Positions 1 to 24,669 of a stretch of 35,326 bases of DNA are shown piece by piece (the first letter of the stretch is position 1; every line of letters starts with the position of its first letter). The DNA comes from Thermoleophilia bacterium. Its GTDB lineage: Bacteria; Actinomycetota; Thermoleophilia; BMS3ABIN01. The notes beneath the pieces are model-generated. The model was not told the DNA's origin, ran no database searches, and was given only the letters and a program-made list of their open reading frames with translations. The stretch lies in NCBI GenBank assembly GCA_030650885.1, contig JAUSDE010000014.1, forward strand, positions 1 to 35,326. The letters run 5' to 3'. A program made the translations under genes and the position numbers.

Positions 1-1300
<1,300 letters not shown>

Positions 1301-19236: not shown

Positions 19237-20733
19237 ATGGAGGATGCTATCAATACCAGCCGCAACCGGTATATTGCCCTTTCCGTGCTCTGCGCCGGCA
19301 TATTCCTGGCAGCTATAGATCAGACAGTTGTGGTGACTGTGCTGCCGCGTATCATCGATGACCTCGAAGGAGGCTTCAGCCCTGCCGGTGTGGAACGTGC
19401 CGGGTGGATCATCACCGCTTACCTGTTCGGCTTCGCGGTCGTGCTGCCGCTGATGGGGCGCGTGGCGGATCTCTACGGCCATCGACGGACTTACGGGCTG
19501 GCGATGGTTATCTTCGCCCTTGGCTCTTTGCTCTGCGCGTTCAGCGACAGCCTTTACGCACTTGTGGGTTTTCGGGCGCTGCAGGCGGTCGGCGGTGGCG
19601 CCATGGTTCCAATCGCGATGGCCGTGGTCGGCCACAATTTCCCTGCTGGCAAGCGAGCCCTGGCTCTAGGCATCATCGGCGCATCCGGGGAAGCAGGCGG
19701 AGTGCTTGGTCCGCTATACGGTTCATTAATCGGCCAGTACATCGGCTGGCGCGCTATTTTCTATCTTAACATCCCCCTGGTGCTGGTGATCGTCTGGTTG
19801 TTATGGCGATACGTGGATGAGAGCAAAAGGTATAAGGTCGCCATCGATTACAGAAGCGCCGCACTGATGGCCCTGGGGTTGGGACTCACTACCCTTGGCG
19901 TCTCAGGAGGCCGGGAGGCGGGATGGTATGGCTTCGGTTTGCCGCTTGTGGGCTTGGGCCTGGCTTTGATCATTGCATTTATCTTCAGCGACCTGCGTTC
20001 GGAGCACCCTCTGGTGAATTTTCAGCTTTTCTCCAACCGATCATTCGCTTCGGCGAATATCGCCCATTTCCTGGTGGGGATCGCGCTGATCACTGCTCTG
20101 GTGCAGGTGCCATCCTTCGCATATAGCTCCGGCTGGCCCGCGTCCTCCTATAGCGATCCGATGACCGGAGGCCTGCTGCTGATCCGGCTGACACTGATGA
20201 TCCCGGCAGGAGCGATCGTCGGCGGGCTTCTTTGCGGCCGTGTGGGCGGACGGCTGCCGGCGGTTTTCGGTTTTGTTCTCTCGGCGTTCGGCCTTTGGCG
20301 GATGAGCCTCTGGGATGCCGATGTCGGAGCTATGAGGCAGACCCTGGACCTGCTGATAGCGGGGTTCGGATTCGGCCTGGTGATCGCCCCGATTAGCCTG
20401 GCAGTTGTGAATTCGGTCAAGCGCCGCAGGATGGCTTCAGCGTCAGCAGTGCTTACCACCAGCCGGATCATCGGCATGATGGTCGGCCTGGCGGCTCTCA
20501 ACAGCTGGGGAATCAGCAAATTTCAACAGGCCCAGGAAGCGGATCCGGCACCGGTACCGCGCCGCGGTATGAGCGTCACAGAATACCTGGAAGAACTGAA
20601 GTTATGGGAGCACCACAGCGTTGAAACGATCCTTGGGGTTCTCAGCGATTTCTTTCTGATCGCGGCGGTCGTCTGCGTGATCGCTATCATCCCGTCACTG
20701 CTGCTTTTCCGGAAAGACAGTGAACCGTACTAG
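19237..20733 (+). CDS. MFS drug:H+ antiporter (DHA2-like)
   Basis: FLAAIDQTVV, WIITAYL, GRVADLYGHRR, FRALQAVGGG, GWRAIFYLNIP. The start is uncertain (19177-19237). Confidence 0.9.
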   Translation: MEDAINTSRNRYIALSVLCAGIFLAAIDQTVVVTVLPRIIDDLEGGFSPAGVERAGWIITAYLFGFAVVLPLMGRVADLYGHRRTYGLAMVIFALGSLLCAFSDSLYALVGFRALQAVGGGAMVPIAMAVVGHNFPAGKRALALGIIGASGEAGGVLGPLYGSLIGQYIGWRAIFYLNIPLVLVIVWLLWRYVDESKRYKVAIDYRSAALMALGLGLTTLGVSGGREAGWYGFGLPLVGLGLALIIAFIFSDLRSEHPLVNFQLFSNRSFASANIAHFLVGIALITALVQVPSFAYSSGWPASSYSDPMTGGLLLIRLTLMIPAGAIVGGLLCGRVGGRLPAVFGFVLSAFGLWRMSLWDADVGAMRQTLDLLIAGFGFGLVIAPISLAVVNSVKRRRMASASAVLTTSRIIGMMVGLAALNSWGISKFQQAQEADPAPVPRRGMSVTEYLEELKLWEHHSVETILGVLSDFFLIAAVVCVIAIIPSLLLFRKDSEPY

Positions 20734-21362
20734 GGCTTGGTGATATCCACTACTATTCTTCCAGGCGAACCCAGACCGGCAAGTGAATATGTGGATGGCG
20801 ACGCCAGCTCGATGGAATATGCAAGTGACTGGTCATCGCTTTGCTGAAGCCGCTTGAGCGTTGTTACCACCGGATCTCCCAGATCAAGTGAGCTGGAAGT
20901 TACGCTCTCATTTGTGCCGATGGACCTGATTCCGCCGAGAACTACTTTTATCTGTGTGCCGTCGGCTGACATGGTGGCATCGGCATGCGGGACCTGCAGT
21001 ACCTGATCTCCTTCAGGAGTCCCCATCTCGAAGACGATGCGATAATAGGTGCCGTGATCGGACCATCTAATATCACGAAGCTGCAGACCATCAACCAGGG
21101 TCCCAACTGACTGGCTTCCCGTAAGTCCGGCACCATAGGGTGACGGCTGCTCCTCGGGTACAGTCTGGGTCTGATCAGCTGCGATGAAGGGTACCGGCGC
21201 CTCCACGGGGGTTGTCAAAGTCGTGATACTGCCACCGGCTGCATTTGTGTTTGCGTCGCTGGATGATTCATCACCACAGCCACCCATGAACGTCAGCGAC
21301 TGCAGCGCAATCAAAATAAGCGCAGCGGCAGCCACGAGCATACGAATCCTTGTCAGTCGCAT
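20730..21362 (-). CDS. Lipoprotein with AMIN-like C-terminal domain
   Basis: RBS GGAGG, signal peptide with GGC lipobox, Thr/Pro-rich linker, DIRWSDHGTYYRIVFE ... LGSPGRIVVDI. Confidence 0.75.
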   Translation of the reverse strand: MRLTRIRMLVAAAALILIALQSLTFMGGCGDESSSDANTNAAGGSITTLTTPVEAPVPFIAADQTQTVPEEQPSPYGAGLTGSQSVGTLVDGLQLRDIRWSDHGTYYRIVFEMGTPEGDQVLQVPHADATMSADGTQIKVVLGGIRSIGTNESVTSSSLDLGDPVVTTLKRLQQSDDQSLAYSIELASPSTYSLAGLGSPGRIVVDITKP

Positions 21363-21401
21363 CGCGCTCCTCCGAATGGGGCAAGTGAGGAAATCTGCAG
21401 A

Positions 21402-21553
21402 AGTCCCAAGGAACCTTCGGAAAAATCATTCCCCATCGCGAATGGGAAAGCCCTGGCTGGCTCCGTAATACGCGGGCTCATGGCGCCGCGTTTCCGTACC
21501 AGGGAAGTCTCCCGGAGTAACCCGGGATTGCCATCGTCCGATTCCTTGGGACC
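21402..21553 (-). ncRNA. Candidate structured ncRNA, copy 1 (152 nt; family unknown)
   Basis: Terminal 11-bp stem GTCCCAAGGAA/TTCCTTGGGAC, nested stems CCCTGG/CCAGGG and ACGCGG/CCGCGT, two side hairpins. It starts 7 nt after a -10 box and has a paralog at 21664-21804. Confidence 0.75.
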
Positions 21554-21560
21554 ATCAATG

Positions 21561-21589
21561 ATTCTAGTCCACCAGAAATGCATCGGCAA
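21561..21589 (-). promoter_or_regulatory. sigma70-type promoter of ncRNA copy 1
   Basis: TTGCCG-17 nt-TAGAAT-7 nt-GGTCCCAAG. Confidence 0.75.
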
Positions 21590-21663
21590 TAGCATCTGCC
21601 GCAGATTCAAAGATTTTCAGCGGAATTTGCGAGGATTTTCTCAGGTGCTTCCGGGCATAGAAA

Positions 21664-21804
21664 AGTCCCAAGAAACCTTCTTTGCCTGCCTTCTCAGAGC
21701 CTGCTTCACCTGATTTCCCCGTACTTTGCGGCTTTTTACTTCCGCATTTCCTCTATCAGGCTTCTTTGCAGTTCTCCAGCGAGCCTTTCCGACTTCTTGG
21801 GACC
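21664..21804 (-). ncRNA. Candidate structured ncRNA, copy 2 (141 nt; family unknown)
   Basis: Terminal stem GTCCCAAGAA/TTCTTGGGAC, nested CCTGAT/ATCAGG and TGCGG/CCGCA, followed by a short T run. It starts 7 nt after TATAAT. Confidence 0.75.
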
Positions 21805-21811
21805 TATATAT

Positions 21812-21839
21812 ATTATAAACCTATCCCTCAGGATAGCAA
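21812..21839 (-). promoter_or_regulatory. sigma70-type promoter of ncRNA copy 2
   Basis: TTGCTA-16 nt-TATAAT-7 nt-GGTCCCAAG. Confidence 0.75.
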
Positions 21840-21956
21840 GGTAATCCGCTAGGGGTTTTTACTGAAATTACTGGATTTTGCGGCTTTTTTGTTTCGGTTG
21901 GAATGGCTGGTGGTAGGTATCGTCAACTCCATTTAACCACCAGGGAAGGATGCCTG

Positions 21957-23267
21957 ATGAGCCGATTCTCGTCGACAGCTGTTATGACGCTGCTCTTGTA
22001 TCTGATGTCATTTTCGATGGCAGCCTGCGGGGATTCGGGACCCTCATCAACAGCTGCGGAAACCGCCGTAACCTCGACTTCAGAAATAAAGCCCTTGTTT
22101 AAATCTACCGATTTCACTGACCCGTCGACCTGCGGTAGCTGTCATAGCGATATTTTCGCCCAGTGGCAGGGCTCTATGCATAACAACGCATTCCAGGACA
22201 AGTTTTACCTGAAGATGCATGATGAAGCCAGTAAAGATACGAACGGAGCTGTGGATGCCTATTGCACGTTTTGTCACACCCCGATAGGCACGATGTCCGG
22301 TGAGGTGCCCCCGACATCCGGTCCCCAGATCAGCGAAATCTCGAAGAAGGGCGTTCAGTGCGATCTCTGTCACACGGTAACGAGCGCGAATTTTACTTTC
22401 GCGCCCAGCAAGATAAAACAGGGGCCTTTCACGGACTCCATCTCCACCTTCCATGAGACTGCATATAACGAGCTGTTTACCAAGTCGGAATTCTGCGGCA
22501 TGTGCCACGACGTCAACCATCCGGATAATAATCTTGCCCTTGAAGCCACCTATACGGAATGGAAATCGAGCCCGTATGCAGCCCAGGGAATCCAGTGCCA
22601 GGATTGCCATATGACACCAGGCCCGGGCGTCACCAAACCGAACCCCGGGAAGGCGGCGACTGGAGGCCCCGAGCGGACTCATATCTATACTCACCAGTTC
22701 GTAGGTGGCAATGCCACCTCGCTGGCGTCGCCCGAACATCAGAAGCTGGCAGTCGCACAGTTACAGGCTGCGGCAAGCCTGTCGATCTCTTCGCCCCCAA
22801 GCGTTGTTCCGGGAGGCGACATGGAGTTGCAGGTGACCGTGAACAACAGGGGAGCCGGGCATTACCTGCCGACCGGTCTGACAGAGGTCAGGGAGATGTG
22901 GCTGGATATTGATATTACCGATGCGAACGGCAAGACAATATACCGTTCTGGCGCTGTTGGGGAGAACGGCTCTGTGGATCCGAAGGCTGTCATGTATCAG
23001 ACGCTGTTCAGTGACAAGGACGGCCAGCCGACCCACAAGCCGTGGCTGGCCGTGGCGACCCTTTCCGACAATCGGATTCCGCCCATGGGCAGCGCGACTG
23101 AAAAATACAGCGTTACCGTGCCTGCCGGCACATCGATGCCGCTGACTGTCAAAGCCGGTTTGCGCTATCGCACAGCTTCGCAATCATTTGTGGACGAGTT
23201 GATGGGAGTGGACGCAGTCGAAATGCCGGTCATCGACATGGCAAACGCGACAGCCGAGGCGAAGTAA
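21957..23267 (+). CDS. Pentaheme c-type cytochrome lipoprotein with C-terminal beta-sandwich
   Basis: Lipobox MAAC; five CxxCH motifs (CGSCH, CTFCH, CDLCH, CGMCH, CQDCH); WQGSMH, GAGHYLPTG, DNRIPP. ATG 21957 behind GGAAGGA. Confidence 0.9.
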   Translation: MSRFSSTAVMTLLLYLMSFSMAACGDSGPSSTAAETAVTSTSEIKPLFKSTDFTDPSTCGSCHSDIFAQWQGSMHNNAFQDKFYLKMHDEASKDTNGAVDAYCTFCHTPIGTMSGEVPPTSGPQISEISKKGVQCDLCHTVTSANFTFAPSKIKQGPFTDSISTFHETAYNELFTKSEFCGMCHDVNHPDNNLALEATYTEWKSSPYAAQGIQCQDCHMTPGPGVTKPNPGKAATGGPERTHIYTHQFVGGNATSLASPEHQKLAVAQLQAAASLSISSPPSVVPGGDMELQVTVNNRGAGHYLPTGLTEVREMWLDIDITDANGKTIYRSGAVGENGSVDPKAVMYQTLFSDKDGQPTHKPWLAVATLSDNRIPPMGSATEKYSVTVPAGTSMPLTVKAGLRYRTASQSFVDELMGVDAVEMPVIDMANATAEAK

Positions 23268-23293: not shown

Positions 23294-24475
23294 TCAGGCA
23301 TCCTGTAAAACGGCTATGCCGGGCAGCTCTTTACCTTCAAGGAATTCCATTGAGGCGCCGCCGCCTGTGGATACGTGGTCGAGGTTATCGGCGAGTCCGT
23401 AGCGATTGAGCGCGGCTACGGTATCGCCACCTCCGGAGACTGTAAGGGCATCGTCTGCATTGGCCACCGCGGAGGCGACAGCACGGGTGCCGGATGAGAA
23501 TGGTTCCATCTCGAAGGCGCCCATCGGTCCGTTCCAGAAGATGGTACGCGCCATCTGGATCTCCCTGACATAATGAGCCGATGTGGCCGGGCCGATGTCG
23601 AGGCCCATCCAGCCTTCGGGTATCTGCTCGACGCGCACTATCTGCGCGTGGGCCTCAGCTGCAAATTCATCCGCTACCACCAGGTCGACCGGCAGCATAA
23701 TGCGGCATTTTGAACTTTTCGCTTTCTCAAGGGCCGCAGCGGCAACTCCGATGGCTTCTTCCTCAACCTTTGAAGCGCCGATATCGATGCCCTGAGCTTT
23801 CAGAAAACCGAAGCACATGGCGCCGCCGATGATGATGGCGTCAGCGAAATCCAGAAAACGGTCGATGACGCCGATCTTGTCCGACACCTTGACGCCACCG
23901 AGGATAGTCACGAACGGGTGCTTCGGATGCGCGATCAGGTGATTGAGCTGCAGCAGTTCGTTCTCGAGGAGAAATCCTGCCACTGAGGGTAGAAGAGCCG
24001 CAACTCCGGCGGTAGATGCGTGAGCCCGGTGAGCGGTGCCGAAGGCGTCGTTGACGAAGACGTCTGCGAGGCGCGCCAGAGCTGCTGCGAATTCCGGGTC
24101 GTTCTTCTTTTCTTCCGGATGAAAGCGGCTGTTCTCCAGAAGCGCCACGCCGCCGCTGGGAAGTTCGGCAAGCCTGGCCTCGACCTCGGGCCCGATGCAA
24201 TCGTTAAGTTTCATGACCTCCACACCTAACAGATCAGAGAGACGAGCCGCTATCGGGTCCATCCGCAAAGCATCGTCGGGACCATCCTTGGGCCTTCCCA
24301 GATGAGAGATAAGGATGACCCTGCTCCCGGCCTGCCGCAGGTAATTGATAGTGCCCAAAGCCGCGCGAATGCGCGTGTCATCTACAACCGCGCCATTTTC
24401 CAGGGGAACATTGAAATCAACGCGCACAAGCACGCGCTTGCCGACGACATCTATTTCTTTGACAGTCTTTTTCAT
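23294..24475 (-). CDS. pgk: Phosphoglycerate kinase
   Basis: VLVRVDFNVP, SHLGRP, VNDAFGTAHRAHAS, WNGPMG, HVSTGGGAS. Start at MKKTVK (24475) behind AGGGGA. Confidence 0.97.
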   Translation of the reverse strand: MKKTVKEIDVVGKRVLVRVDFNVPLENGAVVDDTRIRAALGTINYLRQAGSRVILISHLGRPKDGPDDALRMDPIAARLSDLLGVEVMKLNDCIGPEVEARLAELPSGGVALLENSRFHPEEKKNDPEFAAALARLADVFVNDAFGTAHRAHASTAGVAALLPSVAGFLLENELLQLNHLIAHPKHPFVTILGGVKVSDKIGVIDRFLDFADAIIIGGAMCFGFLKAQGIDIGASKVEEEAIGVAAAALEKAKSSKCRIMLPVDLVVADEFAAEAHAQIVRVEQIPEGWMGLDIGPATSAHYVREIQMARTIFWNGPMGAFEMEPFSSGTRAVASAVANADDALTVSGGGDTVAALNRYGLADNLDHVSTGGGASMEFLEGKELPGIAVLQDA

Positions 24476-24669
24476 GGAGTCCCCTATAGTATGACGCGGA
24501 TCGGCGGCGCTGTTCAGCGGGCGGCCAGTAAAGTATCTAAAACCGGGATGAGATGTTTCCGACGAAGCGTCTTGTCGAAGACGCTTAAGCGAAGGAGGGA
24601 ACATCTCATCCCGGATTCTGCACAATCGTTCGCCAGGGTTGTATCGACCCCAGGTTCTGCGCTGATTGC

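Follow-up and report, generated by a model that had tools for sequence, protein, structure and literature searches.

Tandem paralogous RNAs of a Thermoleophilia genome belong to a structured RNA family that is new to Rfam

Several described bacterial RNAs resemble those reported here in one respect or another. 6S RNA and Ms1 are stable RNAs with paired ends, promoters of their own and paralogs within one genome, Ms1 being about 300 nucleotides (nt) long. Y RNA and YrlA likewise come as several paralogs that have a common, sequence-conserved terminal stem and differ in the distal part. GlmY and GlmZ are homologous small RNAs (sRNAs) that use one scaffold and have diverged in function, one of them acting as a protein decoy; they have no sequence or structural relation to the RNAs reported here and are mentioned solely to illustrate how paralogs could share out their tasks. 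Soil and subsurface harbour abundant Thermoleophilia and small-genome relatives of theirs, almost none of them in culture, and we know of no regulatory RNAs described from these bacteria. Here we analyse a 35,326-nt stretch of DNA (the window) from a Thermoleophilia bacterium (contig JAUSDE010000014.1 of GenBank assembly GCA_030650885.1), in which the gap between a cytochrome gene (21903–23267, plus strand) and a lipoprotein gene (20730–21362, minus strand) carries two minus-strand units, A (21664–21804) and B (21402–21553). These units are almost certainly real RNA genes, and their family is new to Rfam and to the literature that we searched. Their products may be trans-acting, protein-binding RNAs, with B serving in addition as a leader, a reading that in our judgement could go either way.

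Unit A is a 141-nt rod-shaped RNA with a closing stem (P1), helices P2 to P5 and a 10-nt apical loop. Unit B is its 152-nt branched paralog and consists of P1, a 5' hairpin, a central hairpin (loop 21476–21485) and a 3' hairpin. The two units share the 5' end GGUCCCAAG and the 3' end GAAGGUU(U/C)CUUGGGACU, and in each of them these ends pair into P1, a stem of about 14 base pairs. The central hairpin of A (21709–21760, minus strand) contains P4 (CCUGA/UCAGG), a sarcin-ricin-type internal loop (GGAAA/AAGUAC), P5 (UGCGG/CCGCA) and the apical loop (21732–21741). The positions, ends, helices and loop coordinates agree throughout with those given on the minus strand by an initial annotation of the window, which had also seen compensatory changes between A and B in three helices. 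All of these changes are present: position 10 of the closing stem is A-U in A and G-C in B, and the helices CCUGA/UCAGG and UGCGG/CCGCA of A correspond to CCUGG/CCAGG and CGCGG/CCGCG in B. The predicted folding energy of unit A is −47.9 kcal/mol (z −3.87), which 0/200 shuffles equalled, and that of unit B is −69.5 kcal/mol (z −3.08), equalled by 1/200.

The 15 sequences of type A alone show both-side changes in 16 of the 34 predicted pairs. When copies from a second family of the same class (f5; the window's own family is f1 below) are included, the A-type alignment comprises 34 distinct sequences from two orders, was made with MAFFT and not fitted to any structure, and shows compensatory changes in 23/30 pairs. 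Paired cells in that alignment amount to 96.5%, against 80.4% in column shuffles; none of 500 shuffles reaches any of five measures, and pairing drops to 33–44% once the partner is slid by 1–3 columns. Type B (13 sequences) has 10/34 compensatory pairs (4.5 in shuffles) and 95.6% paired cells (90.7% in shuffles), with 0/500 shuffles reaching four of the measures and 2/500 the fifth. Because the sequences are related, these counts of compensatory pairs overstate independence, but between three and six different pair types occur in each of the helices P2, P4 and P5. Covariation in both A and B bears out the view, already taken in the initial annotation, that the units represent a duplicated non-coding RNA family under structural selection. 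No conserved reading frame was found over the A–B region when stop-free stretches were compared in 13 orthologous loci: these stretches shift in strand and length among the loci and the unit lengths differ by non-multiples of three, which argues against a conserved open reading frame (ORF).

A promoter scan of positions 21200–22000 returned exactly two sigma-70-like sites, both on the minus strand (0.6 ± 0.6 in shuffles). The promoter of A (21812–21839) has the −35 box TTGCTA, a 16-nt spacer and the −10 box TATAAT, ending at 21812, and that of B (21561–21589) has TTGCCG, a 17-nt spacer and TAGAAT, ending at 21561. Each lies 7 nt ahead of the first G, and both the sites and the spacing are those named previously. 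The 70 nt upstream of every copy were aligned (17 A-type rows and 13 B rows). Most of the A-type rows have a TATAAT/TATACT-type −10 box whose end lies 7 nt ahead of the first base, the exceptions being two rows (loci L032 and L043) in which it is displaced or weaker, whereas all 13 B rows have TTGCC-17-TA(G/A/C)AAT ending at that distance; the promoters of f5 are near-consensus, TTGACA-17-TA(G/C)AAT. Each unit's promoter is thus conserved across genera, in keeping with the independent promotion proposed earlier. The 3' strand of A's P1 followed by UUUUCUAU (21657–21677, minus strand) resembles an intrinsic terminator, and a U-rich stretch follows P1 in 17/17 A-type rows. Directly after the P1 3' strand this run is good in A, in f5 and in a further paralog, C (see below), and is weaker and interrupted in B. 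With promoters at a fixed distance and a U-run behind P1, the predicted primary transcript is the closed structure itself; the start, the end and the stability of the RNA are predictions that we infer from these consensus sites and the fold.

At gathering thresholds, no family of Rfam 15 matched the RNAs in the window, as the novelty suggested by the initial annotation required, and in 15 loci of relatives the only matches were to RNase P RNA and the c-di-GMP-I riboswitch, neither of them on the RNAs. A description of these RNAs was not found in the literature searched; candidates might be listed in the supplements of PMC2864571 and PMC9130861. At E ≤ 10 the gap (21300–21950) gave a hairpin-ribozyme match (19.1 bits, wrong strand), which does not recur in relatives and is taken as chance or likeness of design, and one to Dictyoglomi-1 (RF01703, 18.5 bits). 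Dictyoglomi-1 alone among the Rfam models gives an end-to-end alignment with unit A, with GGAAA-stem-AAGUAC and a similar closing region in common. It is likewise a rod-like RNA of unknown function with sarcin-ricin internal loops, four such motifs being noted for the family in PMC13085918. However, the score of A (E 0.089 in 651 nt) compares with a gathering score of 150, the model comes from a different phylum and has 236 positions, and the match, which recurs in none of 22 loci of relatives, is absent for B, C, a fourth paralog D, two f5 loci (L067, L073) and the ∼ 170-nt RNAs described below. The resemblance is one of design, not membership. The raiA motif RNA (RF03072) and the large orphan sarcin-ricin RNAs listed in PMC13085918 are also conserved, structured RNAs of unknown function with sarcin-ricin motifs that were found comparatively, but no such model matched at E ≤ 10 and the RNAs reported here are smaller.

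The initial annotation had further likened the units to 6S RNA and to Y RNAs, and neither likeness has held up. No match to 6S (RF00013, cut-off 46.4 bits) was found at E ≤ 10 in 21300–21950, and a canonical 6S RNA lies elsewhere in the genome (C24:5558–5714, 77.6 bits). Whereas 6S has a large central bubble between long irregular helices, the predicted, covariation-supported fold of A has internal loops of only a few bases per side. From Ms1 the units differ in their length of 141–152 nt. The units could still be a second, divergent promoter mimic that binds RNA polymerase (RNAP) in the manner of 6S or Ms1, as the rod shape, the paired 5' and 3' ends and a size near that of 6S would suggest; moreover, Actinobacteria have extra RNAP-binding RNAs, Ms1 and CoRP, according to PMC9130861 and PMC11077062. 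We nevertheless regard such a role as very improbable, given that normal 6S is already present in the own genome and in 5/5 tested genomes of the second class discussed below, that the bubble and any 6S match are missing, and that the neighbours (pgk/cytochrome and the lipoprotein gene) are unlike the conserved HAD-IB hydrolase and oxidoreductase genes with which Ms1 is described in PMC9130861. As for Y RNA and YrlA, the RNAs reported here have no tRNA-like domain and no Rfam match, and no TROVE/Ro gene (PF05731) was found in the 94%-complete genome (0 matches, with positive controls in Deinococcus and Bacteroides). Small SRP RNA (RF00169), of which a genome has one, essential copy, was also considered and rejected: that of the genome is at C132:10900–10999 (77.8 bits) and there is none in the gap.

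The assembly of the own genome amounts to 1.89 Mb and is 94% complete. The 3' P1 motif (with up to two mismatches) plus the 5' motif occurs in it only three times, whereas a broad covariance model of the family (R3) finds four members, so that the two units seen initially are not the only ones: A, B, C (C31:6555–6674) and D (C61:8765–8905). Unit A was scored at 152.7 bits by a model of the A type (R1), and unit B at 80.9 bits by R3. The sequence-conserved P1 and the adjoining purine-rich internal loop are common to all four, and a central hairpin with a GAA/AGUA-type loop is common to A, B and D. Type C is a shorter form located elsewhere in the genome, with an extra covarying 5' hairpin and a promoter about 55 nt further upstream, while B always lies 100–300 nt downstream of A. 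Paralog D (minus strand, locus L099) has a CCCGGGAG.../...CACCCGGGG stem and a separate GC-rich terminator hairpin. Over its whole locus (C31:6504–6676, plus strand, L044) paralog C combines an A/B-type closing stem with a different interior and has a fold z of −8.45; contig C31 ends about 100 nt past it, and in a genome of the same genus (L045) C lies ∼ 250 nt upstream of a DAHP synthase/prephenate dehydrogenase/EPSP synthase operon. Paralog D is convergent with a UPF0182 gene, and one f5 copy (L085) lies ∼ 800 nt upstream of a UPF0182 gene; the UPF0182-adjacent site may be the ancestral position. In the genome G018 (locus L059), what looks like a degenerate extra copy of the central hairpin, with GGAGUAAAAAGCCCGC and GUCGUAC, is found ∼ 200 nt past unit A.

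The phylogenetic distribution of these RNAs is wide but patchy. A pattern built on the P1 ends matched 16/41 genomes, i.e. the own genome and 15 of the 23 other members of f1, with 0 matches to a reversed control pattern; outside the family it matched none of 17 genomes from six other families. R1 matched 47 of 151 genomes of the class, comprising the own genome, 21/23 other f1 genomes and 25/25 genomes of f5, and none of the 102 genomes from nine other families of the class. A search of related genomes with models built from the copies, as had been proposed at the outset, therefore yielded homologs in both f1 and f5. The window's order consists of f1 alone, and 22 of its 24 genomes were matched, the two misses being 86% and 89% complete. 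Among the public contigs that matched the pattern, titles named Thermoleophilia (5), Gaiellales (3), Actinomycetes (4) and 'uncultured bacterium' (1); the remaining one of the 14, a contig labelled Gammaproteobacteria, has neither an R3 match nor the structure and is put down to chance.

Each f5 genome carries 1–6 copies, several of which sit at contig ends. Two f5 genomes (L085, L089) contain a second, 100% identical copy of a whole unit with promoter, RNA and terminator (289 and 266 nt), 3.6 kb and 1.4 kb away from the first, which suggests recent duplication or gene conversion among copies. Such identical units, together with the terminator-like closing stem and U-run, would also fit elements that are non-functional, that is, repeated terminator hairpins or repeats resembling repetitive extragenic palindromes or miniature inverted-repeat transposable elements (REP/MITE). 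This explanation is already contradicted and has next to no chance of being right: in place of the many dispersed copies typical of such repeats, which the initial annotation had named as evidence against RNA genes, only four copies are found in 1.89 Mb, each with its own conserved promoter, covariation is extensive in five internal helices, and the copies occupy orthologous positions across genera.

Beyond the class, R3 matched 9 genomes in a 151-genome sample of the phylum: six belong to the class (including the own genome) and three weak matches lie outside it (G212, G250 and G151, the last an unpublished genome on which no claim rests). Among the relatives of G250, low-GC genomes of 0.8–2.8 Mb from another actinobacterial class, R3 matched 11/40. 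The RNAs of this second class are about 135–173 nt long, start with [A/U/G]GUCCCAAGAAGUCCUA..., end with ...GGAAGGYUUCUUGGGAC and have TTGACA-type promoters. A strict pattern for the ∼ 170-nt form found it in 11/48 genomes of the second class, with 0 control matches, and eight of these ∼ 170-nt RNAs show 20 compensatory pairs among 43. The form has the same P1 as the A-type RNAs; P1 is near-identical in sequence across the classes, beyond what pairing needs, and this is the most striking conserved feature of the family. G212 stands alone, since its 21 nearest relatives gave no match; its mini form of 73 nt has the same stem and is preceded by a TTGACA-17-TAGATT promoter.

In the 34 A-type sequences, the internal loop between the covarying helices P4 and P5 has GAA in 34/34 and AGUA in 31/34. 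The A type thus agrees, at the level of sequence, with the definition of the sarcin-ricin (bulged-G) motif as GAA opposite AGUA between two Watson-Crick helices. It has one canonical GAA/AGUA loop, and two more of its loops look like GAA/AGAA by eye. Window's B carries AUUA, and AGUA is found in 9/10 of the B orthologs that could be parsed (3/13 were not), so that the loop E (sarcin-ricin) assignment of the initial annotation stands in its canonical form for A and not for the window's own B. A similar division applies to the apical loops, both of which had been described as exactly 10 nt long and variable in sequence, possibly as guide elements. The coordinates and the length of A's loop are right; this loop has 10 nt in 31/34 and 11 nt in 3/34 A-type sequences, and its sequence is conserved as NNNYAAAWRN from f1 to f5, i.e. 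in two orders, and hence is not that of a variable guide. The loop of B is unlike A's and measures 9–12 nt in B orthologs (10/13 parsed by script); its outer GC...GC pair in 12/13 sequences, leaving about 5 unpaired bases, so that it probably pairs internally. The loops are paralog-specific and conserved, not hypervariable, and the idea of a guide of fixed length and variable sequence has to be given up. In the window's genome, A's apical loop could make a kissing contact of 5 pairs with the loop of the 5' hairpin in B; by eye this contact is not kept in relatives, and it was rejected.

Conserved loops that differ between paralogs would also be in line with base-pairing sRNAs, in which the apical NNNYAAAWRN and the GGAG-rich internal loops pair with mRNAs and the paralogs have different target sets; bacteria commonly have sibling sRNAs in multiple copies whose loops are conserved. 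Such a role appears decidedly unlikely, because most of the conserved unpaired bases lie in the internal loops of a long rod, where they resemble structured motifs (GAA/AGUA) and not an accessible seed, and because the standout conservation is in the double-stranded closing stem.

The gene order in f1 is gap-pgk-(cytochrome, present or absent)-A-(B)-lipoprotein. The lipoprotein gene with its GGAGG ribosome-binding site (21369–21373) spans 20730–21373 on the minus strand, starts 40 nt after B and encodes 210 amino acids with a weak AMIN-like match (25.2 bits; cut-off 27). It is present in 18/23 other f1 genomes, and f5 gave one weak match among 25. In 13/13 B loci the GGAGG site and start codon of this gene follow B at about 25–70 nt, and B is upstream of the lipoprotein gene in all 13, whereas C, D and the f5 copies are not. 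In the window, the promoter scan found no promoter-like site between B and the gene. Genomes that lack B (G009, G022, G010) have promoter-like sites of their own ahead of the lipoprotein gene. From this arrangement of sites, B is probably also the 5' leader of the lipoprotein gene. The contexts of the paralogs are different: pgk and the lipoprotein gene flank the A–B pair, C precedes the DAHP-synthase operon and D is beside UPF0182, and a rough ORF listing puts opposite-strand ORFs downstream of several f5 copies.

Could the RNAs, or B alone, then be no more than a cis-acting leader or attenuator, a 5' untranslated region of riboswitch-like or protein-responsive kind in which P1 and the U-run terminate transcription and thereby control the lipoprotein gene? 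Wherever an f1 assembly includes both A and that gene, A (alone or followed by B) is directly upstream of it in the same orientation, B stands 25–70 nt before its GGAGG site with no promoter between, and the U-run of B, weaker than that of A, makes read-through plausible. On the other hand, the RNA family is found in 25/25 f5 genomes, where the lipoprotein has only its one weak match; unrelated or convergent genes follow C, D and the f5 copies; A comes with a promoter and a good terminator of its own, behind which B's promoter lies; and the genomes without B have their separate promoter-like sites. A different 5' hairpin, potentially a switch, can fold with 81.5% of cells paired, but it shows no covariation, 342/500 shuffles reaching this value. 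On balance, a purely cis-acting role seems unlikely.

Of the possibilities considered, we favour RNAs that act in trans through a protein. Transcription would start at the first base of P1 and end at the U-run behind the P1 3' strand. In the finished RNA, which would form a closed rod in A and a branched one in B, a helix would enclose both ends. The conserved non-Watson-Crick modules, i.e. the loop beside P1 and the GAA/AGUA loop, could form a docking platform for a protein, for which the RNAs would act in trans as a scaffold or decoy; the different genomic contexts of the paralogs point to action in trans. We read B as a tandem copy of A that arose within f1 and came to lie between the promoter region of the lipoprotein gene and the gene itself; it would now be both a family RNA and a gene leader, and termination at its P1 would be leaky. 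Both protein binding and the leader role of B are inferred here. Several observations weigh against this interpretation. The sole linked gene, that of the lipoprotein, is confined to f1, and its product therefore cannot be the partner of the whole family and was rejected as such. The sequence conservation of P1 could stem in part from promoter-proximal and terminator constraints rather than from recognition. A and B stand beside the same gene in all f1 genera, which also fits a cis-acting role. Finally, no RNA run containing the sequence is listed among 8 sequencing runs, so that the proposed start, end and abundance rest on consensus sites.

A broader version of the trans-acting, protein-binding role is possible but doubtful. 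It holds that these RNAs form an ancient, uncatalogued actinobacterial family spanning at least two classes, in which P1 with its purine-rich loop (GYCCCRAG...C-GGAA / GAAGG...CUYGGGRC) binds a conserved protein, A–D tune or partition that protein, and B couples it to the expression of an envelope gene. If a P1-binding protein exists, the RNAs would make up the RNA half of a ribonucleoprotein that would rank with 6S-RNAP or Y RNA-Ro, and the partner, once found, would mean a new bacterial ribonucleoprotein. A 1.9-Mb genome that retains this RNA in four copies, each under a promoter of its own, textbook covariation, and a P1 that is near-invariant across classes make a pattern that usually signals a central housekeeping or global regulatory role. 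The present alignments already suffice as the seed of an Rfam family and for the design of probes and baits.

Some further features of the loci may be recorded here. The sole match in the window that reaches an Rfam gathering score is a tRNA gene at 1227–1300 (minus strand, 65.4 bits). The cytochrome gene, which encodes a multihaem cytochrome c, is inverted between pgk and A and is absent in some relatives; in L031, where it is missing, A lies ∼ 80 nt after pgk, which indicates insertion or loss within a conserved synteny. The phosphoglycerate kinase ORF (pgk; 23294–24625, minus strand), as read from its TTG start, has about 54 residues ahead of the Pfam PGK domain, and the true start is probably further downstream than the listed TTG. 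In L061 (G009) the ATG of the lipoprotein gene is preceded, at a distance of only about 8 nt, by a TAGAAT box, which suggests that genomes without unit B may have a leaderless lipoprotein mRNA. In the second class, five loci (L115, L116, L118, L122 and L123) from four or five families have a conserved ∼ 48-nt element with a C-run/G-run closure ∼ 10–20 nt after the 170-nt RNA; it has no Rfam match. Two of these loci have an ORF resembling cobalamin adenosyltransferase that is convergent with the element and, upstream, a divergent RNase P RNA gene.

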